A stretch of DNA of 64,000 nucleotides, from positions 506,545 to 570,544 of the forward strand of contig CBDFQE010000001.1 in assembly GCA_965250955.1 (NCBI GenBank), in the 5' to 3' direction. Under the pieces are notes generated by a model. The model had not been told where the DNA came from and did not search any database. It saw nothing but the letters and a program-made list of their open reading frames with translations. The translations under genes and the position numbers were made by a program. Shown one piece after another: positions 10,147 to 32,599 of this stretch. Source of the DNA: Amylibacter sp. GTDB lineage: Bacteria > Pseudomonadota > Alphaproteobacteria > Rhodobacterales > Rhodobacteraceae. Within the stretch, counting starts at the first letter, position 1; each line of letters starts with the position of its first letter.

Positions 10147-10213
10147 TAGAAATACGCACTGGTATTTCCATTGAAAAATTGACAGATTGCCGCTGTATCA
10201 AAGAGGGGTCGTT

Positions 10214-12175
10214 ATGTCTGATAATCTGCAACCAATGTGGGCACCATCACAAGACCGTATCGAAGCCAGTCTGCTGGCAAAGTTTATTGCCGCTGCATCT
10301 AAACAATCGGGCAACGCGGCACTGGATTATGATGCCATATGGAACTGGTCAGTTTCATCCCCCATAGAATTCTGGGATGCGTTATGGGATTTCTGCGGAG
10401 TTATCGGTGATAAATCCAGCCCAGTGATGGCCCAAACTGGCACTCTTATAGACACACAGTTTTTCCCGAACGCGAAAATCAATTTCGCAGAGAACCTTTT
10501 GGGCCACGCGGGCGAAGGCCCCTGTATTATCTTTCGCAGTGAAGATGGCGGGCGTACTGTATGGTCATGGGACGACTTGAAACAAACCGTTTCAAAGCTA
10601 CAACAGGTTTTAATTGCACAAGGTATAGGGCAGGGCGACCGCGTTGCGGGCTTCGTGCCCAACCTACCCGAAGCCATCGCTGCCATGCTGGCGGTCACCA
10701 GTCTAGGTGCCGTCTGGTCATCGTGTTCACCTGATTTCGGTCTGAACGGCGTCAAAGACCGCTTTGGCCAAATTGAACCTAAAATCCTGTTCACCGCAGA
10801 CGCCTATCACTACAACGGCAAAACGCATTCTTCTTTGGACGTGGCCGCCCAACTGGCCCAAGATTTGCCCTCGGTGCAAAAAGTCATTGTCATTCCTTAT
10901 GTGGAAACATCTGCGGATATTTCTGTTCTGGGCGCAAAAGGCCTGCATTGGGCCGATGCATTGGCTGCATATGAAGCCAAAGAAATCGCTTATACCCGCG
11001 TCGATTTCGCCTCACCCTTATATATAATGTTCTCATCGGGCACCACAGGCCTGCCCAAATGCATCATCCATTCTGTTGGCGGCGTGCTGTTGCAGCACTT
11101 AAAAGAACACCAGCTGCAATGCGATGTCAAACCGAACGACCGCTTCTTTTATTTCACCACATGCGGTTGGATGATGTGGAACTGGCTGGTTACGGGGCTG
11201 GCCTCAGGGGCCACACTGGTCTTGTTTGACGGCTCACCGTTTTACCCCGATGGCAATATTCTGGCCGATATCGCCGCATCCGAAAGTGTCACCCAATTCG
11301 GCACTTCAGCCAAATATATAGACGCTTGCGCCAAAGCCGGCATAAAACCCGCCCAAACCCATGATCTATCTGCCCTGCGCACAATCCTGTCCACAGGTTC
11401 CCCGCTGGCCCCCGAAGGTTTCGACTATATATATAGCGATTGGAAATCCGACGTTTGCCTGTCTTCGGTTGCAGGCGGCACTGATATTGTGGCCTGTTTC
11501 GTCGGCGGCAGCCCGATTAGCCCAGTTTATCGTGGCCAATGCCAGAAACGGCACCTTGGCATGAACACGCAAGTGTTCGATGAAAACGCCAAGCCATTGC
11601 AGTGTGAACCCGGTGAATTGGTCTGCACATCCGCACACCCCTCAATGCCAGTAGGTTTTTGGAATGATCCTGATCGCAAGAAATACTCTGCGGCCTATTT
11701 CGAAAAATTTGACAACATTTGGCACCACGGTGACTGGGTGGAACTGACAGCTCAAGGCGGCATGACTTTCTTTGGCCGCTCGGATGCTGTACTGAACCCC
11801 GGCGGTGTGCGTATCGGCACAGCCGAAATTTATCGCCAAGTCGAACGCATCGAAGAAGTGCTTGAAGGTCTGGTGATCGGTCAGCAATGGGATAACGACG
11901 TGCGCGTTGTGCTGTTCGTGCGTTTGCGTGAAGGGGCCACATTGGATGAGGTTTTGATCAAACGCATCAAAACCGAGATACGCCAAAACGCCACCCCGCG
12001 TCATGTGCCTGCAAAGGTCATCGCTGTGACGGACATTCCACGCACCAAATCTGGTAAAATTACCGAACTGGCGGTGCGTGATGTAGTGCATGGGCGCGTG
12101 GTGAAAAATACCGAAGCTATGGCAAACCCCGAAGCACTGGAATTGTTCAAGGATTTGCCGGAACTACAAGTCTAA
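10214..12175 (+). CDS. Acetoacetyl-CoA synthetase (acetoacetate-CoA ligase)
   Basis: ORF track 10187..12175. Start trimmed to ATG 10214 (AGAGGGG RBS). AMP-binding motif [11 protein letters not shown], about 650 aa with an AACS-type N-terminus ([17 protein letters not shown]). Confidence 0.85.
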
Positions 12176-13919: not shown

Positions 13920-15203
13920 CTAGTCCTGAATAGCCCCATCAAACATGGTAAAGAAAGGGGTCACTAAATACTGTGAAAAAGTGGTCTTTCGCCCTTCCAA
14001 AGCAACTGATACAGGCATGTCCGCAATAAGATGTAAACCCCCATGCAGACCAGCAACCGCCTGTTGCAGATCGTCCCCTATAATGGTGGCTTGCGCAGGG
14101 TACCCCGTTGGGTTTCCGTCATTATCTTTGGCGGCATCGGGTGAAATGGATTTCAATCGCACGCGTATCTTGGACAAATTGCGCTGCGGCAGGCTTGTAA
14201 CAGTCAACGTGCCTGACATGCCAACCCGAACCTGATCAATGGTTTGTGTTGGGATCAGCATTTGCACAATCGGCTGATCCAAGGCCTGTGAAAGTGTGAC
14301 CAGTGTGGTGCCCTTGGCTGCATACATCTGATTGGTGTCATAGCCTAGAAAAACAACCGTGCCTGAAACAGGCGAGCGAATTACTGCACTATCAATCTCA
14401 TCTTCTAAAGCCAACGATTGTCGCCGCAAATTCGGCAAAAGCTTAGTGTTCTCAAATTGTCTGCTTAACAAAGACAGGCGAAACTTGGTTTTTAGCTTTT
14501 GCGTATTCAAAACCGCTTGATCCGCCTGATTTTGCACCGATGCCAGTTGTTCTTCCTGCTCATTAATTTCGCCCTCCAGTGACAGAACCTGATCAGATTG
14601 CAATTCTTCTTGCGCCTTTGATAGCAAGCCCTTTTGCACCAGCGCATTTAGGTTGACCGACCTTTCAGACCTCACGCGCCGCCGCATAACCAAAATACTT
14701 ATACCATCTTCAATGGAACTGGCCCGCTTCCGGTTCGCATTCGCTGTTTGCAATTCCGCATTGATATCCAGCTTCAGCTGACGACGTTGTTCATAATAAC
14801 GCGCATTGATCAGATCGTTTGGCGGGATTTTCAAAATCTTATCTGTATCCGTGGCCGTCAGAATTTGCCTTATAACCGCATTTTCAGCCTCAATATTTGC
14901 GATCTGGATTTTAACCTCACTTAAACCTTTCACTTGGGTCGCAACATCCAACTCAAATAAAATCTGCCCTTTTTCCACCTGGCTTTGGGCTTTGACTAAA
15001 ACCTGCCTAATACGCCCGCCAAAGGAATGCTGGATGTCATAGCTGGGTTTTGCTGAAACCAAGGTGCCATTTGCCCTTATCGTGGTGGATAAGGGGGCAA
15101 AAATCGCCCAGGCCATCAGGCATAAAATGGCGATACTCAGGCTGATAAACGCCAACTGTAATGGTCTCGTAATTTCTGTCGGCATTTCGGTTTCAGGGTT
15201 CAA
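13920..15203 (-). CDS. HlyD-family type I secretion membrane fusion protein
   Basis: N-terminal TM helix, long coiled-coil middle, and a C-terminal beta domain typical of HlyD/PrtE. 4-nt overlap with the upstream ABC gene. Confidence 0.85.
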   Translation of the reverse strand: MNPETEMPTEITRPLQLAFISLSIAILCLMAWAIFAPLSTTIRANGTLVSAKPSYDIQHSFGGRIRQVLVKAQSQVEKGQILFELDVATQVKGLSEVKIQIANIEAENAVIRQILTATDTDKILKIPPNDLINARYYEQRRQLKLDINAELQTANANRKRASSIEDGISILVMRRRVRSERSVNLNALVQKGLLSKAQEELQSDQVLSLEGEINEQEEQLASVQNQADQAVLNTQKLKTKFRLSLLSRQFENTKLLPNLRRQSLALEDEIDSAVIRSPVSGTVVFLGYDTNQMYAAKGTTLVTLSQALDQPIVQMLIPTQTIDQVRVGMSGTLTVTSLPQRNLSKIRVRLKSISPDAAKDNDGNPTGYPAQATIIGDDLQQAVAGLHGGLHLIADMPVSVALEGRKTTFSQYLVTPFFTMFDGAIQD

Positions 15204-17278
15204 TGTTTTGTAACCTCTGCAAGTTTAGATTTGTCACTGGAAAGCCAAGCCGAGAATAGAGATGCTTTATCTATATTTTGCACCTCCAACTTATCAGCCA
15301 GTTGGGTGACAACTGCTAAAGCAATTTCGTCAGGGGGCAGATCAAACATATTCACTTCCGGATGGCGCACCAATGAGCGGATTTTTTGCATTTTCCCAAC
15401 CGCATCCGTCGGTCGCTCTTCTTTTAAAATAATCTCACAACGGACAGCATCCAGAAACTTAAAGATAAACATCGCTTCTCGCGGTTTATCCTGCGGGCCG
15501 TTTTGACAGGCCGCATTAAACATCTCTGTCGCCACCAGAACTGATTTTTGACAAAACTCTGTATCGGAATTGCGTGAAAACTGGGCAATAATCCAATCAT
15601 TCAAATCCTGTAAAGAGGCAGGATTTAACGGAATAGTCAGACGTTGACGCCCATCACTCATCCGCCCCAAAACTTCAGAACGCGCACCGAAATCGGCGGT
15701 GCGCCCATGATCCAGCATCAAAACTTTATCTGCCAGCCCCATGATGCCTGAACGATGCAAAACCATAATAATAGTTGTGCCTTTCGTTTTTAATGTGGCC
15801 AACGTATCGCAAAGTTGCCGTTCACCTGCGGCATCCAGAAGCGCGTTGGGTTCATCCAGAAACAGGTATCTGGGGGATTGAAAAATGGCTCGCGCCAAAG
15901 CAACCCGTTGCTTTTGCCCGGCTGACAGCAAATATGGGTTTTCACCCATGTCTGCCTCATATGCCCCCGGCAAGGCAGAAATCAATCCATGAACCCCTGC
16001 GGTTTTCGCCGCATTGACGATCTGCTGATCATCCGGATCCGGCGCAAAACAGGAAATATTCTGGGCCAATGTGCCGTTCAGCAACTGCGCTTGTTGCGGC
16101 AAGTACCCAACTGCCTGATTGAATGTGACAGGGCCAAGCGTGCGTATTTCGCTTTCGTCCAGAAAGGTAGAGCCGATAGGGCAGGGATCAATGCCGCAAA
16201 GCGCATGTAGTAATGTGGTCTTGCCACTGCCACTATCACCCAAAATCGCTAGGCATTCCCCTGCTTCCAGCGAAAAAGAAACCCGATCAAGGCGTGGGGG
16301 TGCGCCACCGCCACGGGGAAAAATCAGCCCTTCAACACGCAGCGCACCTGAAAGATCGGGCACTTCGGTCGGGGCCACATGATTGCGCGCCAAATCTATG
16401 CGCATTTGTTGGAACGCGCCATAAGACATCTTGATGTCTGTAAGGCTGTTAATACTGGCTTCAATCGTGGTGATGGTCTTTGCCGTGATAATAGAGGCCC
16501 CGATCATCCCCCCCGAAGACAAATCACCGCTTACAACCAGTGATGCCCCAAGTGCCAATGCCAATATTTGTGAAGACATCCGTATAAACCCAAGGCTTGC
16601 CGTGCGCATAGAGGTGGCAGCCGTGATCTGATCTTCGCTTAAGTGCCGTTGCGATTGAATGTTGAAAAACTTTGCTTTCAGGTTTTCCGCCATTGCCTGT
16701 ATCCCAGACACTTTTTGAAAATCAGTTGCATCCTTTAATGTCTGCTGTTCTTGGCGCGATAAAGCCGCCGATGATTGCGTCTGATCTTGCGTCAGCAATT
16801 TTGTGACGAACTTGATCAGGATAATTGTTGCTATAACGCCTGTGGCCAGCAGCAGAAATAACGGGTGAATAAGAACAAGGGCGGTTAAGAATAACGGCAC
16901 CCAAACAATATTAAGTGCCGCCGTCGCTGTCGGCCCTTTAAAAAACCGTGACAGTTGACCAACATTGTGGATCGCCACTTGGCGTTCTTGCCCTGTCAGC
17001 TGCAAAGCAGAGCTTGCCCCGATGGCTTCCACCCACCGCGCGGTCTTGGAAAAAAACTGATCACGGTAAAATTCAACAAAAGCATGGGTCGCGATGGCCC
17101 CCAAGGCCACCATCAATAACATCAACAATGTGCTTAGGTTTTCACTGGGAACGACACGATCAATTACTTGCATCATGAAGATCGGGCTGACCAAAACCGC
17201 AAGGTTCGTGACCATGCTGAAAATAATCAGCGGGGTTACCTGCTTTTTCAACTGACTTAGGGGATCAGGTTGTGACAA
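15200..17278 (-). CDS. Type I secretion ABC transporter (permease + ATPase, PrtD-type, no C39 domain) with about 150-aa C-terminal extension
   Basis: N-terminal TMD. Walker A GDSGSGKTT, signature LSAGQKQRV, Walker B YLFLDEP. The NBD ends near aa 540 of 692. Confidence 0.9.
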   Translation of the reverse strand: MSQPDPLSQLKKQVTPLIIFSMVTNLAVLVSPIFMMQVIDRVVPSENLSTLLMLLMVALGAIATHAFVEFYRDQFFSKTARWVEAIGASSALQLTGQERQVAIHNVGQLSRFFKGPTATAALNIVWVPLFLTALVLIHPLFLLLATGVIATIILIKFVTKLLTQDQTQSSAALSRQEQQTLKDATDFQKVSGIQAMAENLKAKFFNIQSQRHLSEDQITAATSMRTASLGFIRMSSQILALALGASLVVSGDLSSGGMIGASIITAKTITTIEASINSLTDIKMSYGAFQQMRIDLARNHVAPTEVPDLSGALRVEGLIFPRGGGAPPRLDRVSFSLEAGECLAILGDSGSGKTTLLHALCGIDPCPIGSTFLDESEIRTLGPVTFNQAVGYLPQQAQLLNGTLAQNISCFAPDPDDQQIVNAAKTAGVHGLISALPGAYEADMGENPYLLSAGQKQRVALARAIFQSPRYLFLDEPNALLDAAGERQLCDTLATLKTKGTTIIMVLHRSGIMGLADKVLMLDHGRTADFGARSEVLGRMSDGRQRLTIPLNPASLQDLNDWIIAQFSRNSDTEFCQKSVLVATEMFNAACQNGPQDKPREAMFIFKFLDAVRCEIILKEERPTDAVGKMQKIRSLVRHPEVNMFDLPPDEIALAVVTQLADKLEVQNIDKASLFSAWLSSDKSKLAEVTKH

Positions 17279-17341
17279 AATAAGTGGCTTTCATTAAGTA
17301 TAGGGGAAACCGTCGTTGTTAGGCAGTTTCCATATTCAAGA

Positions 17342-19195
17342 TCACAAGATGAAATTGCTTTCGTCCAGATCATCGGGATCAATCGACTTGATCAATATTT
17401 CGTCCAGATCATCGGGATCAATCGACTTGATCAATATTTTGTCGCCGCTCTGCCCGCCGTCCAAGCCGCTAAGATCAATCTCTGTAGCCCAGCCTTGATT
17501 TGTCATTAGATTTTGTAGGTCGGAAAATTCCAATCCGTATGATGACAGGTCAATTTGGTCATGGCCTGTTTCAAAGTCGTGGATCATATCCTTGCCGCCC
17601 CCTGCGGACACAACAAAGGTATCCGTACTTCCGTCTTTCCACCAATTACCGCCCCACATATGGTCGTCACCGGCACCACCTTCAATCGTGTCAGAACCCG
17701 ATCCCCCGACAAGCTTGTCAGAACCTGCCCCACCCGCGATAACATCATCGCCGCCACCCCCCAGCACCTTGTCGTCACCGGCCCCGCCATCCAGCTTATC
17801 GTCGCCGGTTCCCCCTTCTATGTGGTCATTACCGTCACCGCCTGACATTTTATCATTGCCACCGCCGCCAAATAACTTGTCATTACCTGCACCGCCCGAA
17901 ACGGCATCATCACCTTTGCCAGCATGGATCACATCGCTGCCTTCACCGCCATGTAACTGATCATCCCCGTCACCACCGCGCAGCTTATCGTCACCCGCCC
18001 CGCCAAAGGTCACATCATCACCAGCCCCCGCATTTATGATATCGTCGCCCGCACCGCCTTCAGCATAATCATCGCCGTCTTCCAGGTTAAGTGTGTCATT
18101 GCCGTCACCACCATAAGCGATATCATCACCGTCACCGGCATTCACAACATCATCGCCTGCATCACCATATAGCTGATCATTGCCCCCGCCGCCCAAAACC
18201 ACGTCATCGCCGTCACCACCATGTATGGTGTCGCCTGATGCATCCAGTTTGGGGCCATTAGCACCTCCTGTCGCTATGGCCGATGCGTCATAAACCCATT
18301 TGCCACCCACAAGGCTCCATTCATTGCCCGCAACACCGCCTGCAGCCAGATCATTGCCTTGGCCTGCGATAATATCATCGGCACCGCCATACCCTAAAAT
18401 AACATCCGCATTACCATCATCCCCATCGATTGTGTCGCCATGTTGATCGACAAACCCCACATGCATCGTGTCGGCCCCTTCAGTGCCATCTACAGTTACA
18501 GCCGTTAAATCCGCCTCATCAATGATTTGTATCGCGTCACCGGCAATCAGAATTGCACTGTCATATATATTGTCACCTACATCTGCGATCACAATTTTAA
18601 TTGTATTTTCCTGCCCCGGAATAAGCTTCGCTGTCACCGACAAGCTTGTAACCACACCATCAAACTCGGTGTTAATCGAACTATCCGTGTTATTGTAGAA
18701 ATCCCCAGCATTCACATCGACAATACCATTCGTTGTACCTGTAATAGGCACCAACTCACCATTCACGTAAACCGCTGCCATGTCATTATATATGCTACCC
18801 ACATATTCAGGGTATTCTTCGCTAGCGAAAGTCATCGTAAAACTAAGCGCATCCTGATCGGGTATAAAAGTCACTTCCAACCCGGCTGCATCAAAAGTTT
18901 TATGTGTCGTGTGTTCGGCAATGTCATCACTACCTTCGGTTTTCATCTTGCCCGATGTATTTAACTTTTGATTGAATTCGCCACTTTCATTGGTAGCATG
19001 CGTGGCGTTGCCAGTTGAAAAGATCAACCCGGTGTCAGCAGGTGTTAGTTCATCCGCCACCGCATCGCCATTTGAAAAAGCCGCGACCTGTTGGTCAGAA
19101 CCGATAAGAGAAGCACTTACAATCGTAGCACCTCCTGAAAATAATGCTTCCGCCGCATTTGTTGCATCAATACTTGAATAATCTAGATTTGCCAT
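17342..19195 (-). CDS. RTX-type calcium-binding secreted protein (N-terminal choice-of-anchor-L-like domain, GGxGxD nonapeptide repeats, C-terminal T1SS signal)
   Basis: ORF track 17342..19207. ATG at 19195 is preferred because of its GAGGA RBS. Many GGAGDD/GGDGND repeats. N-terminal FTMTFASEEYPEYVGSIYNDMAAVYVNGE. C-terminal DMIHDFETGHDQIDLS. Confidence 0.9.
   Translation of the reverse strand: MANLDYSSIDATNAAEALFSGGATIVSASLIGSDQQVAAFSNGDAVADELTPADTGLIFSTGNATHATNESGEFNQKLNTSGKMKTEGSDDIAEHTTHKTFDAAGLEVTFIPDQDALSFTMTFASEEYPEYVGSIYNDMAAVYVNGELVPITGTTNGIVDVNAGDFYNNTDSSINTEFDGVVTSLSVTAKLIPGQENTIKIVIADVGDNIYDSAILIAGDAIQIIDEADLTAVTVDGTEGADTMHVGFVDQHGDTIDGDDGNADVILGYGGADDIIAGQGNDLAAGGVAGNEWSLVGGKWVYDASAIATGGANGPKLDASGDTIHGGDGDDVVLGGGGNDQLYGDAGDDVVNAGDGDDIAYGGDGNDTLNLEDGDDYAEGGAGDDIINAGAGDDVTFGGAGDDKLRGGDGDDQLHGGEGSDVIHAGKGDDAVSGGAGNDKLFGGGGNDKMSGGDGNDHIEGGTGDDKLDGGAGDDKVLGGGGDDVIAGGAGSDKLVGGSGSDTIEGGAGDDHMWGGNWWKDGSTDTFVVSAGGGKDMIHDFETGHDQIDLSSYGLEFSDLQNLMTNQGWATEIDLSGLDGGQSGDKILIKSIDPDDLDEILIKSIDPDDLDESNFIL
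17361..17438. repeat. Perfect 39-bp tandem duplication (2 units) inside the RTX gene 3' end
   Basis: The unit tcgtccagatcatcgggatcaatcgacttgatcaatatt occurs at 17361-17399 and again at 17400-17438. This encodes ILIKSIDPDDLDE twice. Confidence 0.97.
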
Positions 19196-19677
19196 TTTTC
19201 CTCGCAATTTTATGAGTGCCGTGCCTGCAAAGCAGACTTGCCTGTATTCTGCTGCCCATAGCTAAGGATGATTTCCTAAGAATGTGTTGAGCGGGTTATA
19301 TGTATAAGGAGAAATTATCGGAAATTTTAAAAGACTCAGTTTTATAAAAATTAGCCCAAGAAAGCAGTGTGATTCACTTGAAATTACTTGAAATGATAAA
19401 AAACTTTCACTGTACGCCCCATTTTCGCCCGCTCACAAGAATGTGGTGAAGGTTTCTGTTGCAGGGATGTAACGATTCACTATCCAATTCGGTCTAAAAC
19501 TATCGGATGCCTTGTTTGTGAGGCCGGAATATGTGCTTTTAGGTCAACGAACGGAGCTTCATGGTGAAGTTTGTTATAAAAACTCTGGTTTTTGATGCTG
19601 GCTCAACCTGTAGTCATCGAAGATCAGAAAACCGAATATGCTAATTTACTAGCAACACGATCAAAAGGATTGGGATA

Positions 19678-23502: not shown

Positions 23503-24798
23503 CTACCCATCTAATGCACCGTTCTCTAACGTAGTTTTGATAATGATTTCAACCAGTTCGAAACTTGTTTCTGAACTGATATCTTCAAAATATACCGTAC
23601 CCGGCCACGGTGGGATTTTGCTGTTGTAGCCGTTTTTCGAAATTGTTTGAGCCACGTTTTTGATCGCGGCAGTATATTTTGTTGCGGTGTCCAGAGTGCT
23701 GATTTTGGTCGCGGCCATATCTTCAATACTGTTACGGTCAATCTGCCCGGCGCCGATGCCCAAAAACAATGGGATGTTGCGGGTTATCGATTGTTCTTCG
23801 TAAAAAGACATGGCTACCCGGTCGTCATCCAGACGCATGATATAATCGCAGCACACACTGTGCTTCAAATCGGTTAGCTGCTCTAATGTTATCACATCGG
23901 CATTTCCAGCTTTAGCCGCTCTACGTCTTGATGAGCGGTTCTTTTTTTCGGCCAGTGTAACATAGTCGCCGCGTAAATTAGCATCGTATACACGGTGCCC
24001 CCATGGGTTTTCGTCAACCAGTCTGCGGCTTGATCTGATGGCCATATTCTTGCAATTATTGGGGCCGATAAAAAATGGTGACCCGGATGCATCCGATAGT
24101 TCAAGCCAGCCGTTGGGGAAGCATTTGAAGAAATGATCAGCCCAAGGCTGGATCACCTTATCGGTTAACATATCCAACAGATCATTGGCAAAATCAGGTT
24201 CATGAACAAGGGCTGCAAGAAGCGGTTCTTGCCCGAACGTGTCGGCGGCAAGGCTATAGGCGGCACTTAGGTGCAAAATGGGTTCAAGCCCGGTTAAACG
24301 CTCATATGCAGCGATGATGTCTGTTACAATTTTGGGAATGCCACTGTCAAAATCGGGGGTTTGGATATTCTGCCAGTTATCTCTGGTCAGCAACATATCA
24401 TCGGGGTCAGCCCCGGGTGGAAAGCGATCAGGATACATTGTTGATTGCCCCATCGCCTCGGCGGTAAAGCCGTAAACAGGCCAGCTTACATAAAATTTGT
24501 TCATGCCCAGCAAGCGGCGCGACATTAAGGTTGTACGCACATAGCGTTCTGCGTCACCTTTATAAAACTCGGATGACTCGTAACCATAAAGGTCATTCAT
24601 GATAGTTAGGGTCATAAGGTTTAAAGACCCGCCGATATTTACCGTATTTTCTTCGGTTGGGCGGGCGAAATCTGCATCATAATCACCTGCTATGGCGGCA
24701 TCAAAGATTTGCCGTAATCGGTGCAACGCTTCGGGCTCACCCGCTTGCCAACGTGATAGTAAACGACATCCCGCAGTAACATTAAACTCTTCAATCAT
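23503..24798 (-). CDS. Hypothetical 431-aa protein (possibly URO-D/MtaA-like fold; weak)
   Basis: ORF track 23503..24885. Start trimmed to ATG 24798 (MIEEFNV, AGGAA RBS). The only resemblance is a weak one, LELSDASGSPFFIGP, to the D..SG..IsP segment of URO-D-like methyltransferases. Confidence 0.5.
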   Translation of the reverse strand: MIEEFNVTAGCRLLSRWQAGEPEALHRLRQIFDAAIAGDYDADFARPTEENTVNIGGSLNLMTLTIMNDLYGYESSEFYKGDAERYVRTTLMSRRLLGMNKFYVSWPVYGFTAEAMGQSTMYPDRFPPGADPDDMLLTRDNWQNIQTPDFDSGIPKIVTDIIAAYERLTGLEPILHLSAAYSLAADTFGQEPLLAALVHEPDFANDLLDMLTDKVIQPWADHFFKCFPNGWLELSDASGSPFFIGPNNCKNMAIRSSRRLVDENPWGHRVYDANLRGDYVTLAEKKNRSSRRRAAKAGNADVITLEQLTDLKHSVCCDYIMRLDDDRVAMSFYEEQSITRNIPLFLGIGAGQIDRNSIEDMAATKISTLDTATKYTAAIKNVAQTISKNGYNSKIPPWPGTVYFEDISSETSFELVEIIIKTTLENGALDG

Positions 24799-24892
24799 TT
24801 CAGATATTCCTAAATATGTCTTATGTGATATTTTGCGTAGAAATTTGAAAAAAACAATTTGAATGTTTTTAGTAAGTGCATACAATAATTAT

Positions 24893-25771
24893 ATGAAAAA
24901 TATTCAACATATCTTAAATACCCTGCCGGCATTTGTTGAAGCGGCGCGTTTGGGTAGTTTTACAAAAGCAGGTGATAAACTGGGCATGGCGCAACCTTCG
25001 GTCAGCCGGTTCATCAATAATCTTGAAGCCAGTATCGGGTCGGCGTTATTTCATAGAAATCACAACCAGATTGAGTTAACTGAAAACGGCAAAAAACTAT
25101 ATGATGCGGTGACATTGGGCTTGGACCATATCAGTAGAACCGTTGCTACGTTGCATGAAATCGACGAAAAATCAGTCATAACGATCAGTTGTTCACATGG
25201 ATTTTCACATATGTGGTTGCAAGCTAGGTTGCCTGAAATTCAAAAAAAACTACCAACGCACAAGGTGCAGATTGTAACCTCGGATCACACAGCCCCCTTA
25301 ACCCATGACGATGTCAGTTGTGCTGTGCGGTTGGGGGATGGAAACTGGCCTGATTGCATTTCGAAATTTCTTTTTTTAGAAGAGGTTTTCCCCGTGTGCA
25401 CAACTGAGTTTGCCCATAAATATAATATCCAAGATATAATCACTGCAAAAGAAATACAGACCCTACCGCTTCTTGCGTTGGATGCAGGGAAATATGGCTG
25501 GTTGGGTTGGCGTGAATGGTTTTCACATCACGGCCTTTCTTATGATGTTCCCGTGGGTACCGAGTTGATCAACAATTATGCCTTCACGTTGCAGGCGGCG
25601 ATGGCAGGCCAAGGCATTGCCCTGATGTGGAAAGGTTTGGATATACCATATCTGAATAGAGGTTGGTTGAAAGAGCTGGGAACACTGCGCGTAAAAACCC
25701 GTAACGCCTATTATCTGACTTTCCCTGAAGACAGCCCGTATGTTGGGCAATTCAGTCAGGTGTTTATATGA
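24893..25771 (+). CDS. LysR-family transcriptional regulator
   Basis: ORF track 24863..25771. Start trimmed to ATG 24893. wHTH segment LPAFVEAARLGSFTKAGDKLGMAQPSVSRFINNLE. Divergent from the 431-aa ORF. Confidence 0.9.
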   Translation: MKNIQHILNTLPAFVEAARLGSFTKAGDKLGMAQPSVSRFINNLEASIGSALFHRNHNQIELTENGKKLYDAVTLGLDHISRTVATLHEIDEKSVITISCSHGFSHMWLQARLPEIQKKLPTHKVQIVTSDHTAPLTHDDVSCAVRLGDGNWPDCISKFLFLEEVFPVCTTEFAHKYNIQDIITAKEIQTLPLLALDAGKYGWLGWREWFSHHGLSYDVPVGTELINNYAFTLQAAMAGQGIALMWKGLDIPYLNRGWLKELGTLRVKTRNAYYLTFPEDSPYVGQFSQVFI

Positions 25772-26077: not shown

Positions 26078-26156
26078 CAAATGTCACAGCCGCAGATCAG
26101 AATATCTATACCCTAGGTTTACTAAAATATTTTTTCATAAACTTAGGAGATATATA

Positions 26157-26417
26157 ATGTCTGACGAAAAAATGACCAAACATGGAGCATTAAATATTGA
26201 TGCGCGTAATTCGATTCTCGAGGCTATTCGTGCATCGGTCAGTAAAGAGAAATTATTGAATTTGGAAAGTGCGGGAAGCATAGCCACAGCACTTGATTCT
26301 TTGGCCGCTCGGAATTTGTATTCTAAGGGGCCAACAGGCGATAATTACTCAAAAAATACGCAACGCGTTGGTTTTGACAATCTTGTACGTCCTGCTGACT
26401 TGGGTGGCTTAGAGTAA
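26157..26417 (+). CDS. Candidate RiPP precursor peptide (86 aa, Cys-free)
   Basis: Inner ATG of ORF 26007..26417, with an AGGAG RBS at 26145-26149. It is the first gene of a same-strand operon with HExxH and radical SAM enzymes. The C-terminal third carries YSK, YSK and FDN. Confidence 0.6.
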   Translation: MSDEKMTKHGALNIDARNSILEAIRASVSKEKLLNLESAGSIATALDSLAARNLYSKGPTGDNYSKNTQRVGFDNLVRPADLGGLE

Positions 26418-26540
26418 TACGCTTCGTGTTTCAAAGCACCAAGGTAAGGTGTGAACGAAGAGTTTAGAAAGGTTTTCGCCCTTGATGTTCCATTAATCCG
26501 GGGCGGGAACATTTTAATTATTATTTTTTTCGGAGGCGAC

Positions 26541-27722
26541 ATGTTGGATTTAAATACATCTGAAGTAACTGTCTTTCTATCAGGATTTGCGGGGCCGATT
26601 GAACCGATCAATGTAGAATTGTTGGAAATGATTGTTGGGGAACGGGGTAAAATCAGTGCTCAACAATTTTTTGAAGCAAATGCAGAGCGTTTGCAAAGCA
26701 GCAATCCTGGTCTTTTAAATTTTTTACAAACCACTTTAAAACAGAGTTTACCGTTTCAAGCACTTTGGACGCCCACTATCGGGATACTGGAAGAATGCTT
26801 GCGCCAAGGTGTGAATGATATTGAAACTGTCGAACGTGTGGGCGTATCTTTGGCTTGGGATTTGGTTTGCGCGGGGTTTCAGGGCCGCTGGTCAAGTATG
26901 TTGCCCCCGATGAACCCGTTGACAATAGGTAAATATGTGCTGCCGAAGGCTGACCGGATTGACGTTGTTTCGGATGCCTCGCAAATAGTAGTTACCTACC
27001 CTGAAAAAGTGCGCTGGATTTATACCCGTGGCACCGAAACAGCCCAAGCACCAAATGAATTAATGCTGGAAAACGGCAGCACCTGCGAGCAGATAACTTT
27101 TCTTGTTGGCGGTTTAGACAGGTCACACAGTTTTGCCAATCTGGCAGAATTAGCCCTTGCACCTTCAAATCTGGATAAAGCCGTAGCAAAACATGCAGAA
27201 GCTGTAGCGTTACTTCGTGAACACGCGCCAGAATACTTGGAATATGTGAGCCGCGTAATTCATACAGTGATCCCCCTACAAGATAATGATGGTATTCTTA
27301 ATAGTGGCTCCAGTCGTTGTGAACCCGGTGTGGTTCATGCAAGTGTGGATTGTTGCGCCGAGGCATATGCAGAGATGCTGGTGCATGAAGCATCGCATCA
27401 GTATTATTATATTTTACGCCGGATGGGAGAGATCGAAGATGGTAGTGATCCTACGCTATATTTTTCCCCTGTAAAACAAACAGGCCGTCCTATTGCAATG
27501 ATCCTATTGGCTTATCATGCTTTTGCAAATGTAGTTTTGATGGGGCGGCGTATCACACAAAGCGGTTTTATTTCCCCTGGCGATTATTTTCGTCAGAATG
27601 AAGATTTTCTGATGCCGATTTTGGATACGCTTAAAGATGGTTTGACAACCACACAGGCGCTGACCCCGTTGGGAAGCTGCGTGTGGGAGCCTTTGGATCA
27701 GGAATTATTGGTGAAATCGTGA
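26541..27722 (+). CDS. HExxH-motif peptide-modification protein (alpha-KG-HExxH-type hydroxylase family candidate)
   Basis: ORF track 26451..27722. ATG 26541 is preferred because of the GGAGG RBS at 26533-26537. Motif AEMLVHEASHQYYY...SPVKQTGRPIAMILLAYHAFANV. Confidence 0.75.
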   Translation: MLDLNTSEVTVFLSGFAGPIEPINVELLEMIVGERGKISAQQFFEANAERLQSSNPGLLNFLQTTLKQSLPFQALWTPTIGILEECLRQGVNDIETVERVGVSLAWDLVCAGFQGRWSSMLPPMNPLTIGKYVLPKADRIDVVSDASQIVVTYPEKVRWIYTRGTETAQAPNELMLENGSTCEQITFLVGGLDRSHSFANLAELALAPSNLDKAVAKHAEAVALLREHAPEYLEYVSRVIHTVIPLQDNDGILNSGSSRCEPGVVHASVDCCAEAYAEMLVHEASHQYYYILRRMGEIEDGSDPTLYFSPVKQTGRPIAMILLAYHAFANVVLMGRRITQSGFISPGDYFRQNEDFLMPILDTLKDGLTTTQALTPLGSCVWEPLDQELLVKS

Positions 27723-28882
27723 GCTATTCCATTCGCCATGTAGTTTTGAAGATCGCCAGCCGATGCAATTTGAACTGTAGCTATTGCTATTTGTATAATC
27801 ACGAAGATCAAAGTGCGTTGCGCCAGCCGAAACGTATTTCTGATACGGTGTTTCAACAAATTGTGCACCGAATGAAAGAATATTCAGACAAGGAACATAC
27901 GCCTATTGGCCTGACATTTCACGGCGGCGAGCCAATGTTGTTGCAGGCAGAGCGTTTCGCAGAATTGCTGGAATATGCGCGTAACAAACTTGGATCGGCA
28001 CTTGAAAGTGTCAGCATCCAAACAAATGGCACACTGGTAACAGATCGATGGGCCCAAATTCTAAAGGATGGCAATGTCGGCGTAGGCGTAAGTCTTGACG
28101 GCCCACCTGATATTCATGATGCGTCGCGCCCTTTGCATAGCGGGCGTGGTAGCCATGCATTAACTCTTAAAGGCATTCGATTACTGCAAAAGCATGGGGT
28201 TGATCCAAAAATCCTTTGCGTGGTGAACCCTGATACCAGCGGTCTTGATACATACAAACATTTCCGCAATGAGGGCCTGACATTATTTGACTTTTTAATG
28301 CCTGATGTTTCCCATGATAACCGCCAGCTATTTTATGGTGTTGGCCCACATCCTGTTTACGATTTTCTGGCACCCATTTTGGATGCCTGGATTAAAGAAG
28401 ACAATACCAATGTGGTCATCCCGTTATTCTCGGAATTACTTCGGTCACTGATGTCCGGACAACCCGTACGATCTGAATGTTTTGGCAATGCGCCAATGAA
28501 TTATGTGGTGATCAATACTGACGGTACTATCGAGCCTTTGGATGCTTTGAAAGTGTGTTCTGACGGATTAACTGATGCAAATAGAACCGTGTTCAATGAC
28601 AGTTTTTCGGATCTGGGTGACGGTGATGATTTTCTGTCACAATGTTTGACCGGTCGTCATGAACTGCCTTCAAAATGTATGGAATGCGTATGGAAAGACC
28701 TATGCGCAGGTGGTTATCTGCCCCATCGTTACAGCCGTGCCGAAGGTTTTTCTAACCCATCAGTTTGGTGCGCCGACATTCAGCTATTGCTTGTGAAATT
28801 AGCCAATATCATAGAGCCAATGTCGTTGCCTGCCCCCGTACTTGAAGGCTCATACGGAAATATGGTGCCGCAACATGGCTGA
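27683..28882 (+). CDS. Radical SAM/SPASM peptide maturase, FxsB-like
   Basis: CNLNCSYC (CxxxCxxC) near the N-terminus and GGEPML. C-terminal Cys-rich tail CMECVWKDLCAGGYLPHRY...SVWCADI. An alternative GTG start at 27719 overlaps the upstream stop as GTGA. Confidence 0.85.
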   Translation: MGAFGSGIIGEIVSYSIRHVVLKIASRCNLNCSYCYLYNHEDQSALRQPKRISDTVFQQIVHRMKEYSDKEHTPIGLTFHGGEPMLLQAERFAELLEYARNKLGSALESVSIQTNGTLVTDRWAQILKDGNVGVGVSLDGPPDIHDASRPLHSGRGSHALTLKGIRLLQKHGVDPKILCVVNPDTSGLDTYKHFRNEGLTLFDFLMPDVSHDNRQLFYGVGPHPVYDFLAPILDAWIKEDNTNVVIPLFSELLRSLMSGQPVRSECFGNAPMNYVVINTDGTIEPLDALKVCSDGLTDANRTVFNDSFSDLGDGDDFLSQCLTGRHELPSKCMECVWKDLCAGGYLPHRYSRAEGFSNPSVWCADIQLLLVKLANIIEPMSLPAPVLEGSYGNMVPQHG

Positions 28883-29846
28883 AAAATCATCCCTGCCCAC
28901 AGTCATCTTGCTAAATGGAAGAGGTGATTATCTGATGAATCTGCCCGCCTTGCGTGCATTTTCGGCAAAGCTTGACGGCCAGTTCAAGCTAGTTGCAGCA
29001 CCGGATGCCCATCGTATGATACTGCCAGAACTTGATGTAACCGAGGTGATCGAGTTACCGTATACCACCAGTGCTTATGGCAAAGAGTTTGATACGGATT
29101 TATTGTCAGATCAGATCGGGTCAACGCCACTGTTGGTTTCATTGAACCCGTGGCATAGCCTATCCATGCAATCATTTTTGAAGAAAGTGGATGCACAGCA
29201 CAGTATCGGCTTTTTCGAAGATTTCAATGAATGCCTGCCATTGGATTTTTCCAAACATTCAATCGAACTGGCCTTTGACCCGGTTCAGCGTGTTTTTGAA
29301 AATGCTTGCTTGTCTGATTACCTGGAACCGCCAAAATTTCGCCAAGAAGATGAGGATTTGGCCACAGCTATTATTGCAAGTATTGATAGCCATGGCCCCG
29401 TAATCATTGTTCATGGCGACACATTGCCAAACAAGATGTGGGCAAAGGAAAATATGACTGAGCTTATTCAGAAGGTTCTTAATTTCTGGCCAAATTCCGT
29501 TGTATTGGATGTAGGTTTGAAGCCTTGTGCTCAAGAACCTGAAAAAATGCCGGAACGATATATTCACCTAAACCAGATAATATTGCCCGCAGGGTTTGCC
29601 CTTATTAAATATGCAGATCTTTTTTTCGGCATAGATTCTTGTTTTTTGCATGCGGCGGATTTTTTCCGCAAACCTACGGTTGCCCTATTCGGCCCAACCG
29701 ACCCACATGAATTCGGTGTTTTCATGGGTGGTCCGGCACACCACCTAAAAGAACATAAGCTAGATGATATTGCAGTGGATGATGTTTTCAAAGCTGTTAT
29801 ATCGATGATGCCTGATCAATTTCCCAGCCAGGTTGTTGCTGCATGA
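28875..29846 (+). CDS. Glycosyltransferase family 9 (heptosyltransferase-like)
   Basis: ORF track 28842..29846. ATG 28875 (MAEKSSLPTVILLNGRGDYLMNLPALRAF) overlaps the rSAM stop by 8 nt. C-terminal GT9 signature FFGIDSCFLHAADFFRKPTVALFGPTDP. Confidence 0.75.
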   Translation: MAEKSSLPTVILLNGRGDYLMNLPALRAFSAKLDGQFKLVAAPDAHRMILPELDVTEVIELPYTTSAYGKEFDTDLLSDQIGSTPLLVSLNPWHSLSMQSFLKKVDAQHSIGFFEDFNECLPLDFSKHSIELAFDPVQRVFENACLSDYLEPPKFRQEDEDLATAIIASIDSHGPVIIVHGDTLPNKMWAKENMTELIQKVLNFWPNSVVLDVGLKPCAQEPEKMPERYIHLNQIILPAGFALIKYADLFFGIDSCFLHAADFFRKPTVALFGPTDPHEFGVFMGGPAHHLKEHKLDDIAVDDVFKAVISMMPDQFPSQVVAA

Positions 29847-30817
29847 CTTTGATTAAAGACACCATAGGCTTTGGCCTGGGGCAGATTACTCACACCGATA
29901 ACGCCACCGAAATTGCAGCCCATCAGCGGGCTGTAGAAACGGCTCTTGAAAATGGAATAGTTGTATATGACACCGCGCCGAATTATGCAGATGGGGTGGC
30001 AGAAACGATCTTTGGGCAGGCGTTGAAAAATTCAGCGGCTGACGTTAACCGCAAGGATCTGACAATTATTGTCAAAGCAGGATATCCCGCAAAACAAAGT
30101 GCAATTATTCCCTTCAATCTAAAGCTCGCAAAAGATGGCGAAAAGCAAGTTGCCCACCATGTACATTGCTTAAATCCAGAGTTTTTAGTCGCAGAATTTC
30201 AGCAAAGTATTGATCGGATGGGGCTTCAATACGCCGATATCTTCCTTCTCCATAACCCAGAAGAACAACTTGAAGCCTTTGGGCCGGATATCTTTTGCAC
30301 GCGCCTTGTCACAGCCTTTGGAGCTGCAGAAGAATTAAAACGTTCAGGGCAAATCAAAGGCATCGGGATAGCTTGTTCACAAGATATTTTTGATATAGAC
30401 GCATCTGTCTTTCTACATACAGTTTTGCATGCAGCCAATGCTGCAGGCATTACTCTTGATGTTATGCAGGTGCCTTTTAGTCTATCATGCCCCTATGCCC
30501 TTTGGCCCGAGGGCAATACGAAATCTTTGTTGATGGAAGCTGAAAAACTGGATGTTGCAATAATGACAAGCGCATCTTTAGGTAAGATGTTTTTGCCTTT
30601 GCGTACCATAGAAAAGTTGGGTAAAATTTATGGTTTAGAGAGAACGGCACAAGTTGCTTTAGAATTTGCACGCTCTGCGCCTGCAGTTCAGTGTGCGGTT
30701 TTTGGATCAAATTCCGAATCCCATATTCGTGAATTGGCGGAAATAGCCCATAGGGGGAAAACTAGCCGGGTTAGGCATGGCGCGGGCGACAGTTCACACA
30801 GTACCAAACCGAGGTGA
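29843..30817 (+). CDS. Aldo/keto reductase
   Basis: ATGA overlap with GT9. AKR catalytic residues are in context (YDTAPNYADG, IIVKAGY, FLLHNPE). AKR-like C-terminal segment AQVALEFARSAPAVQCAVFGSNSESHIRELAE. The last 25 or so codons may be altered by the adjacent rearrangement. Confidence 0.85.
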   Translation: MTLIKDTIGFGLGQITHTDNATEIAAHQRAVETALENGIVVYDTAPNYADGVAETIFGQALKNSAADVNRKDLTIIVKAGYPAKQSAIIPFNLKLAKDGEKQVAHHVHCLNPEFLVAEFQQSIDRMGLQYADIFLLHNPEEQLEAFGPDIFCTRLVTAFGAAEELKRSGQIKGIGIACSQDIFDIDASVFLHTVLHAANAAGITLDVMQVPFSLSCPYALWPEGNTKSLLMEAEKLDVAIMTSASLGKMFLPLRTIEKLGKIYGLERTAQVALEFARSAPAVQCAVFGSNSESHIRELAEIAHRGKTSRVRHGAGDSSHSTKPR

Positions 30818-30907
30818 TCGGCCCAAAGTTGCAAGAACAACCATCACAAGGAACATTTAAAGAGCCCCTCGGGAGGGTTAAATTTGGGCGCATTGCCAAA
30901 GTTCCAC

Positions 30908-30946
30908 GCTCTAAAGGGGAGCTTAGGGATAGATTAAAGATTTAAG
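30908..30946. repeat. 39-bp direct repeat, copy 1
   Basis: gctctaaaggggagcttagggatagattaaagatttaag, identical to 32561-32599. Confidence 0.95.
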
Positions 30947-30961
30947 GTAAGCGTCCGGCGT

Positions 30962-32162
30962 CTACGTTTCGGGGCTATAATTCCAGGGCATCAGCTCATC
31001 TAGCCTGTTGATTTTGTGATCTGCGATGCGTTCCAGAACCCATGTGAGCCATGCCTGTGGATCGACCTTGTTCAGTTTGGCGGTTTCTATCAGGGTGAAG
31101 GCGATGGCCATGGAATTGCCGCCTCGTTGTGAGCCAGCAAACATCCAGTTTTTACGTCCGATGGCGACGGGCTTCATGGCGCGTTCTGCGGTGTTGTTAT
31201 CCAGCTCCAGAAAGCCGTTGTCGAGGTATGGCCGTGTTTTGGGCATGCGGCCCAGGGCATATCGAATGGCCTTCGCCAGTGGTGATTTGCCGGAAATTTT
31301 GGGAAGTTGTGCGTGCAGCCATTCCTCCAGATCGTCGAAGACGGGTTTTGAATTACCTTGACGTAAAGCCATACGAGCCTCGGGAGATTGGCCCCGCACC
31401 TGTTTTTCTACGCCATACAATTGTGCAATCCGTTTTGGCTTCTTCGGCGATGGCGGACCTTGCGCGGCACATCAACAAACTTGCGCCGAATGTGGGCCAT
31501 ACAGGCGATCCGAGGCTTTGTCTTTACCGAACACATTATTGGCATAACCGTCCGCATGCACCCAATAACCGGATAGATGTTTGACCGGGTGTTGCATCCA
31601 TAAAATGACAAGCGCATCTGACATTAGTCTTTTTGTTATTTTGAGATGTCAATCCATCCTTTTTTGCTATGGCATCCGCCAACGGTTCCAACAGGGCTGT
31701 GGATTTCCCCACCAATCCGCCATGGTCGAGCGGCCCAGATCGACGCCTTCACGGGCATAGATTTGTGATTGGCGGTAAAGCGGCAGATGATCGGCAAACT
31801 TGCTCACCAGAACATGTGCCAACAGACCGGGACCAGGTCTGCCTCGTTCAATCGGGCGCGAGGGCAGCGGGGCTTGTGATATGGCCTAGAGAGTTCACCA
31901 CAAACGGCACAGTTCTTCCGTTGTCTTTATGAATTCAGGGCAATGCACGCTCGTTGTTCGCCTGCAGTTCAGTGTGCGGTTTGTTCAACCTCGGTAGGTT
32001 TTTGGATCGGCAAAGTTGATCCGAATCCCGATACCGCTGCCGGTTTGCCCCGTGCAACTGGTGTTGGAGCTTCTCAATCATCAACGCCTGCGCCTTCACC
32101 TCAGCCGCCAAAAGCTTGGTGACAGCCCAATTCTGCGGGGGGTAGGTTAAAACGTTCAGCAT
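30962..32162 (-). pseudogene. IS66-family transposase TnpC, fragmented
   Basis: Fragments in different frames: LLAAEVKAQALMIEKLQHQLHG (about 32040-32130); PIERGRPGPGLLAHVLVSKFADHLPLYRQSQIYAREGVDLGRSTMADW (about 31730-31870, my translation); [12 protein letters not shown] (ORF 31408..31617); [19 protein letters not shown]...[11 protein letters not shown] (ORF 30962..31420). The zinc-finger region is missing. Confidence 0.85.
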
Positions 32163-32396
32163 GGCCGGGTCCCGAAATGGGAACCTATAGCCTGCATGAT
32201 ATTTGTGCCTGCTGCGGAATGCGACAGCATTCACACACCTTGCCTTCTTTACCAAACCGTTTGGAGGGCCCCCTGTGAATCCCACCAAATCGGCCCTCGA
32301 AAAGAATTGCAAGAACAACCTGTTCGGCCATGCAGCCAAAGTATTAAAAAGGTCACACCCGCAGCCAACCCGCGTGTTGTTTGGCACGGGGATCAC
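32163..32396 (-). pseudogene. IS66 Orf2 (TnpB) remnant
   Basis: Begins MIPVPNNTRV, the typical IS66 TnpB N-terminus, then degenerates through frameshifts. Confidence 0.6.
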
Positions 32397-32560
32397 GAGG
32401 AAAGCCCTTTAAAGACATCAAACCCGCCCCTCGGGGAGGGATTCCGGCCCGTAAGTTTGGGCGATCTCGACTGGCATTTCCAGCATAAAATCCACGGCGG
32501 GAGCATACCGATCATCCTTCAGCCATCATCTTGCGAAAACCGAAAAGTTCACCACTAAGT

Positions 32561-32599
32561 GCTCTAAAGGGGAGCTTAGGGATAGATTAAAGATTTAAG
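32561..32599. repeat. 39-bp direct repeat, copy 2
   Basis: Identical to 30908-30946. Confidence 0.95.

Follow-up and report, generated by a model that had tools for sequence, protein, structure and literature searches.

Organization of the cassette

In a 64,000-nucleotide stretch of the Amylibacter sp. genome (Rhodobacterales; GenBank assembly GCA_965250955.1, contig CBDFQE010000001.1, positions 506,545 to 570,544 of the forward strand), hereafter the window, we recovered an intact five-gene cassette of ~4.7 kb (26145-30817 on the plus strand; all such positions are those of the window), which we interpret as a probable pathway for a peptide that is made on the ribosome and modified after translation (RiPP). 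As read from the open reading frames (ORFs), it codes, in order, for a precursor peptide, an α-ketoglutarate (αKG)-HExxH-type hydroxylase, a radical S-adenosylmethionine (SAM) enzyme, a glycosyltransferase of the GT9 family, and an aldo-keto reductase (AKR; Table 1). The four enzyme genes are joined by overlapping stops and starts (GTGA at 27719-27722, ATGGCTGA at 28875-28882, and ATGA at 29843-29846), all in frame with the flanking ORFs. The hydroxylase ORF opens at a GTG at 26451; the ATG given in Table 1, which is preceded by GGAGG at 26532, is the likelier start, as the resulting length matches that of the orthologs (394-395 aa). A first-pass annotation of this DNA, made from the letters and ORF translations, had described a small ORF with an AGGAG ribosome-binding site followed by four enzymes with overlapping stops and starts; all of its coordinates are reproduced here, and the motifs that it quoted (LVHEASHQYYY, RPIAMILLAYHAFANV, CNLNCSYC, CMECVWKDLCAGGYLPHRY, and WCADI) are all found in the translations.

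Table 1. Features of the cassette and its downstream boundary, with positions in the window
Feature	Position	Strand	Basis or remark
Ribosome-binding site AGGAG	26145..26149	+	7 nt upstream of the precursor ATG; direct reading
Precursor peptide gene, 86 aa	26157..26417	+	ORF; ATG at 26157
Conserved precursor core L54-D74	26316..26378	+	Alignment of six sequences
Predicted αKG-HExxH-type peptide hydroxylase, 393 aa	26541..27722	+	TIGR04267, AlphaFold2 model, Foldseek
Predicted radical SAM peptide maturase, 387 aa from GTG at 27719	27719..28882	+	NCBIfam, PDB comparison
Divergent GT9-family (GT-B) glycosyltransferase, 323 aa	28875..29846	+	PF01075, AlphaFold2 model, Foldseek
Aldo-keto reductase, 324 aa	29843..30817	+	PF00248, catalytic tetrad
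Degenerate IS66-family element	30947..32560	-	Downstream cassette boundary; context, outside the pathway

Conservation of the cassette in distant lineages

The order precursor, HExxH, radical SAM, GT9, and AKR recurs in four other, unrelated context groups, more than chance would account for: L001 (43% GC), with polysaccharide-gene flanks (epimerases, GT2, GtrA, and an ABC-2 transporter); L002-L004 (61% GC), from marine metagenomes; L013 (69% GC); and L014 (62% GC), from a metagenome-assembled genome (MAG) of Thermoanaerobaculia. The carriers of the cassette include the genome GCA_035629865.1. Wherever the contig is long enough, a homolog of the small ORF precedes the same four enzymes in identical order, upholding its earlier designation as the precursor. 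The comparison of gene neighborhoods proposed in the first-pass annotation thus finds the precursor together with GT9 and AKR in other genomes, and these two enzymes, described there as an extension of the cassette, prove to be retained as partners in other contexts. Given that the flanking genes differ in every context, selection is evidently keeping the five genes together; the GT9 gene stays coupled by stop and start codons to the radical SAM and AKR genes despite wholly different flanks. Two of the cassettes contain a sixth gene coding for a DUF4254/DUF6165 protein, which overlaps the AKR stop codon in L002-L004 and is fused to the AKR in L013; those of the window, L001, and L014 are without it. 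Across the five cassettes, conserved genes for a protease, an exporter, or immunity are lacking, and, as had been remarked before, there is no protease, exporter, or TPR partner within the cassette of the window. Among these contexts, L001 alone has a sulfatase gene (9889-11490), ~1.2 kb further downstream than the cassette, which is of note because the radical SAM enzyme is a distant relative of the sulfatase maturases.

The host had been judged alphaproteobacterial rather than actinobacterial. The Rhodobacterales-type host stands, with the CcoN protein of the window falling in a 90%-identity cluster with a protein from an Amylibacter sp. MAG; the cassette itself spans distant lineages and is not either/or in character.

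The precursor peptide

The precursor has no match among the Pfam or NCBIfam families. The window peptide and five homologs, which are 52-90% identical overall, share M1 and an N-terminal leader of ~50 residues that keeps a helix-like motif (KH...RNxILxxI), while the C-terminal follower of 10-15 residues varies freely. None of these six sequences ends in FxSxx, so that the alignment confirms the earlier reading of a peptide lacking that terminus. Between leader and follower lies the core, with the pattern LYSKG-x3-(D/N)NYSKNT-x4-FD (L54-D74), in which L54, Y55, S56, K57, G58, N63, Y64, S65, K66, N67, T68, F73, and D74 are invariant in all six. The core thus contains Tyr-Ser-Lys twice and Phe-Asp-X once, all three conforming to the Ω1-X2-X3 pattern that, with an aromatic residue at position 1, defines triceptide motifs (PMC11499958); the characterized examples include YDR for ChlB, HNR for YhhB, and HTK for HtkB, in which His-C2 is linked to the Lys β-carbon (PMC11499958). 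More distant HExxH/radical SAM clusters have short precursors that keep the ILxxI leader motif and display YVK, YIK, YIR, YLK, YMK, and YSK cores.

The radical SAM enzyme and the predicted hydroxylase

The radical SAM enzyme matches PF04055 and carries the CX3CX2C motif as CNLNCSYC. Its full-length NCBIfam scores descend from YhhB (291.8 bits) through FxsB (262.8) and XyeB (215.6) to the anaerobic sulfatase-maturating enzymes (anSMEs; 179.2), and the nearest solved structure is the radical SAM domain of ChlB (PDB 9gm3, E 2.4e-50), as against E 1e-33 for an anSME. These comparisons support a grouping with the three-residue cyclophane synthases rather than with the anSMEs, the latter being the placement that the first-pass annotation had named as counting against its reading. 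The enzyme belongs to none of the equivalogs with a defined cut-off that we compared, namely YhhB (NF041707, cut-off 445 bits; the precursor is also without the HNR motif), FxsB (TIGR04269, 370 bits), and anSME (TIGR03942, 349 bits). Its earlier description as FxsB-like holds in that FxsB is among the best matches; however, it is nearer to the split YhhB/YhhC type and scores below both cut-offs.

The invariant cysteines are C16, C20, and C23, and, in the C-terminal tail, C320, C323, C329, and C351. The Cys-rich SPASM-like tail noted earlier is therefore present, but its four invariant residues amount to one complete auxiliary set, enough for a single auxiliary cluster and short of the full SPASM complement for two; anSMEs have two auxiliary clusters. 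As in triceptide systems, a homolog, bearing CX3CX2C plus an auxiliary Fe-S domain, of the characterized enzymes that form three-residue cyclophanes (3-CyFEs) is encoded beside a precursor with conserved Ω1-X2-X3 motifs, here YSK, YSK, and FD(N/Q/E/D).

The product of the second gene matches TIGR04267 (mod_HExxH) at 76.4 bits against a cut-off of 40, upholding its earlier assignment to the HExxH family. Its predicted metal motif is H282-E283-x-x-H286, accompanied downstream by R316 and H326, and H282, E283, H286, P310, R316, H326, and N330 are invariant in 61 homologs. Its AlphaFold2 model (predicted local distance difference test [pLDDT] score 94.6) retrieves only two PDB structures below E 0.001 in Foldseek searches, namely SjiH (22ob, E 6e-14) and, from ChlBH, the HExxH domain (8s5f, E 1e-9), and its sequence profile matches PDB 22nu. 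Family membership, the invariant motif and downstream residues, and the modeled fold together support its prediction as an αKG-HExxH-type peptide β-hydroxylase.

The GT9 glycosyltransferase

The assignment of the fourth gene to GT9 is upheld by its match to PF01075 (37.1 bits, threshold 22). Profile searches with this protein recover no relative in the PDB by sequence; its AlphaFold2 model (pLDDT 94.5) has as its top Foldseek matches the GT9 structure 3tov, WaaC, and WaaF (E 1e-11 to 1e-15), which places it in the GT-B fold. In an hhalign comparison with Escherichia coli WaaC, the segments HGDTxxxK, GIDSCFLHAAD, and GPTDP align with the donor-domain motifs, such that H180/T183/K187, D254/H259, and the GPTDP element correspond to the nucleotide-sugar motifs of heptosyltransferases, the functional roles of which are known from WaaC. 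At the N-terminus, G17-D18 is invariant, and the N-terminal acceptor domain is not alignable to WaaC by profile. The protein is not a member of the lipopolysaccharide (LPS) heptosyltransferase I, II, or III equivalogs, its best score being 40 bits (TIGR02193) against cut-offs of 134-185.

A profile search yielded 226 homologs, and the 120 matches listed all have E-values below 1e-59 over nearly the full length; among 1.84 billion representative sequences, the clade comprises 485 representative clusters (50% identity) at E<=1e-30. A profile scan of 185,579 species-representative genomes found no close relative and three weak matches, one of which is an unrelated multi-GT9 locus (L010, see below). 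Exact look-ups of the precursor and the AKR of the window matched no record. We inspected nine contexts of this clade (the window, L001, L002, L013, L014, L015, L016, L020, and L021): an αKG-HExxH gene is adjacent in all nine, and a cyclophane-type radical SAM gene in eight. Against TIGR04267, the HExxH proteins of the window, L014, L016, L020, and L021 score 76-87 bits and that of the Streptomyces locus (L015) 34 bits; for those of L001, L002, and L013, identity to their counterpart in the window is 41-71%. Judging from these neighborhoods, the constant companion of this GT9 clade is the predicted hydroxylase. Natural fusions further link GT9 to HExxH (P0296), to AKR (P0341), to a kinase and DUF4254 (P0239), and to an NTP_transf_5 domain (P0333). 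There are also HExxH/radical SAM clusters without GT9 (L017-L019).

Several of these loci have further components. In Streptomyces sp. NPDC090057 (GCA_044747705.1; L015, 5686-8993), a GT9 of the same clade occurs in a cassette without any radical SAM gene, the order being a 69-aa ORF, an M29/CgnE-like protein, the short HExxH-like protein scoring 34 bits, and GT9, followed by a convergent S8 peptidase. To the HExxH-radical SAM-GT9 core, L020 (3379-15065) adds an M16 peptidase, a methyltransferase, a large second radical SAM protein, a Ser/Thr-kinase-like protein, and a MacB-type exporter, while L016 (4574-14427) adds a B12-type radical SAM protein, a methyltransferase, and an S9 peptidase. The multi-GT9 locus from an uncultured Bacteroidetes MAG (CAISPO010000005.1; L010, 3408-11178) has three full-length GT9 genes and a short GT9 fragment, interleaved with genes for an R2K-type ATP-grasp protein, a 2-oxoglutarate-Fe(II) oxygenase-like protein, and a DUF4116 domain; it may represent another polypeptide-directed glycosylation island, unrelated to the cassette.

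The aldo-keto reductase

The final gene codes for a protein of the AKR superfamily, as had been proposed (PF00248, 107.8 bits, cut-off 24), with the catalytic tetrad D43-Y48-K78-H137 invariant in the five cassette orthologs. No close characterized relative suggests its substrate, the best NCBIfam score being 52.8 bits and the best PDB match E 5e-7. The AKR aligns over its whole length with the corresponding part of the GT9-AKR fusion P0341, at 26% identity. An AKR also occurs in a distant cluster of Methylorubrum extorquens (GCA_053606405.1; L017, 5354-13258) alongside a peptide, a radical SAM enzyme, an αKG-HExxH protein, a B12-type radical SAM protein, and an S8 peptidase, with no GT9; this host is a cultured methylotroph and might offer a tractable model for the reductase step.

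Proposed pathway and alternatives

Taking the above observations together, we propose that the five genes make up a translationally coupled and self-contained operon for a RiPP of the triceptide type, i.e., one with three-residue cyclophanes, to which two extra conserved tailoring enzymes have been added, a reading that we hold to be correct with a probability of roughly 70%. It supports and extends the earlier suggestion of a triceptide-like pathway with several departures. In this pathway, the precursor would be bound via its conserved leader helix, and the radical SAM enzyme would join the Ω1 aromatic ring to the β-carbon of X3 in both Tyr-Ser-Lys motifs and possibly, if not probably, also in Phe-Asp-(Asn/Gln/Glu/Asp). 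The αKG-HExxH enzyme would then hydroxylate a ring-internal β-carbon. The best candidate for this is the invariant D74 of Phe-Asp-X, by analogy with ChlBH on YDR and because such HExxH enzymes are reported to act on Asp and His after a cyclophane has been installed, which hydroxylation of these residues requires (PMC12636437), and the product of YhhC is erythro-β-OH-Asp (PMC12186529). Thereafter, GT9, the predicted donor pocket of which resembles that of the ADP-heptose transferases such as WaaC, would glycosylate the peptide at the expense of a nucleotide sugar, and the hydroxyl from the HExxH step would be the most economical acceptor. In what is the least certain step, the AKR would use NAD(P)H to reduce a carbonyl; in view of the fusions of AKR to GT9 and to DUF6165, this carbonyl is likelier to lie on or around the sugar than on the peptide. 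Removal of the leader and export would depend on genes outside the cassette.

Several points weigh against this reading. The chemistry in it, namely the crosslink positions, the hydroxylated residue, the sugar and its attachment site, and the AKR substrate, is what we infer from the genes present, their conservation and co-occurrence, and the catalytic residues and folds of their products. The radical SAM enzyme misses the cut-off of every named cyclophane-synthase family, and Tyr-Ser-Lys is absent from the characterized motifs reported in the literature that we searched. The third ring is uncertain, because X3 of Phe-Asp-X varies between N, Q, E, and D across the six precursors. The association of GT9 with the hydroxylase was seen in a small sample of nine contexts, and, by sequence identity, HExxH and radical SAM relatives with and without GT9 interleave, implying that GT9 is a modular, exchangeable accessory of this RiPP family. 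Moreover, the cores of the GT9-containing relatives L021 and L016 are without Asp, so that β-OH-Asp cannot be the GT9 acceptor in all relatives. Lastly, barring the distant M. extorquens cluster (25% identity), the AKR is confined to the subfamily with YSK/YSK/FD precursors.

A broader proposal, which we consider rather doubtful, is that these systems represent a widespread class of glycosylated triceptides, in which a dedicated GT9 clade might O-glycosylate the hydroxyl installed by the HExxH enzyme, the sugar possibly being a heptose from an ADP-heptose-like donor, with the AKR, DUF4254/DUF6165, and kinase modules processing the sugar further.

The alternative that survives best, though we think it unlikely, is that a cyclophane-bearing or hydroxylated peptide is made while GT9 and AKR are merely co-located with its genes and serve cell-envelope glycan chemistry, such as heptosylation of LPS or polysaccharides and sugar reduction. 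GT9 enzymes are classically LPS heptosyltransferases, and heptosyltransferases I-III are the only named NCBIfam matches of the one in the cassette; moreover, L001 is embedded among polysaccharide genes, and two sulfotransferase genes and a porin gene lie upstream in the window. Yet, the match to the LPS equivalogs is far below the cut-off (40 versus 185 bits), and the GT9 profile lacks a PDB homolog by sequence. The retention of the coupling to the radical SAM and AKR genes under different flanks, the presence of an HExxH gene in all nine clade contexts, and the existence of HExxH-GT9 fusion proteins further argue against an envelope function.

Less probable again is a product akin to mycofactocin, i.e., a small peptide-derived cofactor or redox molecule, in which case the AKR would have no part in tailoring and would be the cognate redox partner of the product. 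Mycofactocin synthesis likewise involves a radical SAM/SPASM enzyme and a glycosyltransferase, and its product is used by dedicated oxidoreductases. The absence of a conserved protease, exporter, or immunity gene from the five cassettes, the intact AKR tetrad, and the invariant Tyr-containing core would all be compatible with such a molecule. However, the closest affinities of the radical SAM enzyme are with cyclophane synthases and not with MftC-like enzymes, there is no MftE-type peptidase, and the conserved core, with more than 20 residues and three motifs, is unlike a cofactor derived from a C-terminal dipeptide; the GT9-AKR and AKR-DUF6165 fusions also point to tailoring.

We regard as very improbable a scheme in which an anSME-like radical SAM enzyme oxidizes the Ser of YSK to formylglycine, with the AKR and GT9 then processing the aldehyde. 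It would account for the full-length match to the anSME model (179 bits) and the PDB anSME hit (E 1e-33), for the invariant Ser in both YSK motifs, for an AKR being a natural aldehyde reductase, and for the sulfatase gene ~1.2 kb downstream in L001. Nevertheless, that neighbor is found in one context only, and the anSME score is well under its own cut-off (349) and under the scores for the cyclophane synthases. The four invariant auxiliary cysteines are as in the ChlB alignment, and the extra anSME Cys positions are not conserved here. The sulfatase signature is C/S-x-P/A-x-R, which YSK does not display, and reduction of formylglycine would just restore Ser. Equally improbable is that the cassette, acquired horizontally, survives here as a decaying remnant and has lost its expression or function. 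A degenerate IS66 element does abut its 3' end, the DUF6165/DUF4254 gene of L002 and L013 is absent, and no close relative is found among the 185,579 species-representative genomes. However, the five ORFs are intact with coupling and ribosome-binding site preserved, all catalytic residues are conserved, L001 and L014 are likewise without the sixth gene, and the cassette, with a GC content of 0.42-0.46, differs little from its flanks in this respect.

Relationship to known systems

Among characterized systems, the cassette resembles YhhA/YhhB/YhhC in having separate radical SAM and HExxH genes adjoining the precursor and in the best NCBIfam match of its radical SAM enzyme (YhhB, 291.8 bits); YhhC makes erythro-β-OH-Asp (PMC12186529), and the cassette precursor has an invariant Asp at X2 of FDx. 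It differs in its motifs (YSK, YSK, and FDx versus HNR), in the score falling short of 445 bits, in the extra conserved GT9 and AKR, and in the HExxH gene preceding the radical SAM gene. ChlBH, which forms a cyclophane on YDR and then β-hydroxylates the Asp (motif: PMC11499958), shares the aromatic-Asp-X logic, its radical SAM domain (9gm3) being the nearest structure and its HExxH domain (8s5f) one of the two structural matches of the hydroxylase. However, the two activities are fused there and reside in separate proteins here, the HExxH parts are only 14-18% identical in the Foldseek alignments, the precursor family is different, and the cassette adds the putative GT9 and AKR tailoring steps. 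With the FxsB/FxSxx-COOH systems (TIGR04269, TIGR04268, TIGR04267, FxsC, and FxsT), it has in common the pairing of an HExxH protein with an FxsB-like radical SAM/SPASM enzyme; it is nevertheless not such a system, as there is no FxSxx-COOH terminus and neither FxsC nor a TPR protein (FxsT) among the neighboring ORFs, and its host belongs to Rhodobacterales, in contrast to the actinobacterial host that the first-pass annotation associated with these systems. With scores under the cut-offs and differing motifs, the cassette is not an equivalog of YhhB, FxsB, or XyeB.

The GT9 protein shares with WaaC and WaaF the GT-B fold and the donor motifs HxxTxxxK, GxDS/TxxxH, and GPTDP; it differs from these and from TibC in being only 14-17% identical and in that its genomic partners are RiPP enzymes and not LPS core genes. 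The glycosyltransferases of glycocin-type RiPPs are GT2 enzymes. TibC, a protein heptosyltransferase according to PDB entry titles, is a precedent for glycosylation of a polypeptide by a GT9-like enzyme. The nearest precedent for such tailoring is minviopeptin, a triceptide decorated with a nucleotide-derived group through ADP-ribosylation (PMC12912966), with the difference that an ADP-ribosyltransferase acts there in place of GT9 and that PMC12912966 mentions no aldo-keto reductase. In the literature that we searched, the tailoring reported for triceptides and αKG-HExxH systems comprises hydroxylation, oxidative backbone cleavage, and ADP-ribosylation, and in none of the papers returned by the full-text searches was tailoring by GT9 or AKR connected with triceptides or HExxH enzymes; the searches likewise returned no description of this composition, for which the first-pass annotation had named no characterized system. 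The genomic comparisons support the recognition of a conserved, phylogenetically scattered "glyco-triceptide" cassette, the new element of which is the apparent partnership of GT9 and AKR with a triceptide-type pathway.

If the proposal is correct, RiPP chemistry would gain a step of hydroxylation followed by glycosylation, and the GT9 glycosyltransferases, which are familiar chiefly from LPS cores, would gain a role directed at peptides; were the donor to carry heptose, a ribosomal peptide would here undergo the chemistry of the LPS inner core. With its three ring motifs, the invariant 21-residue core suggests a scaffold that is rigid and decorated, the carriers being marine and soil bacteria from several phyla. 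Triceptides and αKG-HExxH hydroxylases form a recent and actively studied field, to which this small, self-contained cassette lends itself through its clear mass-shift predictions.

Cassette boundaries and neighboring genes

Within the IS66-family element at the downstream boundary, the ORF at 30962-31420 matches PF03050, PF13817, and NF033517, with fragmented ORFs upstream of it, and the sequence GTAAGCG lies at 30947 onward. It is bracketed by an exact 39-bp direct repeat (30908-30946 and 32561-32599), which is far longer than the 8-bp target duplication of IS66; patchy additional similarity connects 30829-30890 with 32307-32463. A candidate remnant of the DUF6165/DUF4254 gene after the AKR stop codon, with which a GTG at 30814 overlaps, gave only a 15-aa tblastn match (30898-30942, E 3.9) and was rejected as a chance match because of an in-frame stop in this stretch and its location within the 39-bp repeat flanking the IS66 remnant. 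Scans for promoters and terminators were uninformative, with terminator-like sites at chance level (5 seen versus 5.2 expected), and window-wide RNA scans found no Rfam families or tRNAs.

Upstream of the cassette, a LysR gene (24863-25771, plus strand), the best match of which is the regulator of choline-sulfate utilization at a score below the cut-off, overlaps the start of a divergent gene (23503-24885, minus strand) for a 460-aa protein with weak URO-D/methylcobalamin:CoM methyltransferase (MtaA-like) similarity. The regulator probably controls this divergent gene rather than the RiPP cassette, and we left it out of the system because it is absent as a conserved neighbor in other cassettes. 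Another neighboring group, ~7 kb upstream of the cassette and not kept beside the other cassettes, looks like a type I secretion set (13920-19207, minus strand): a 621-aa protein with RTX calcium-binding repeats is encoded there together with an ABC transporter and an HlyD-type protein. The two sulfotransferase genes mentioned above (PF00685; 20869-21696 and 21693-22565, plus strand) stand in tandem with overlapping stop and start codons, downstream of the porin gene.

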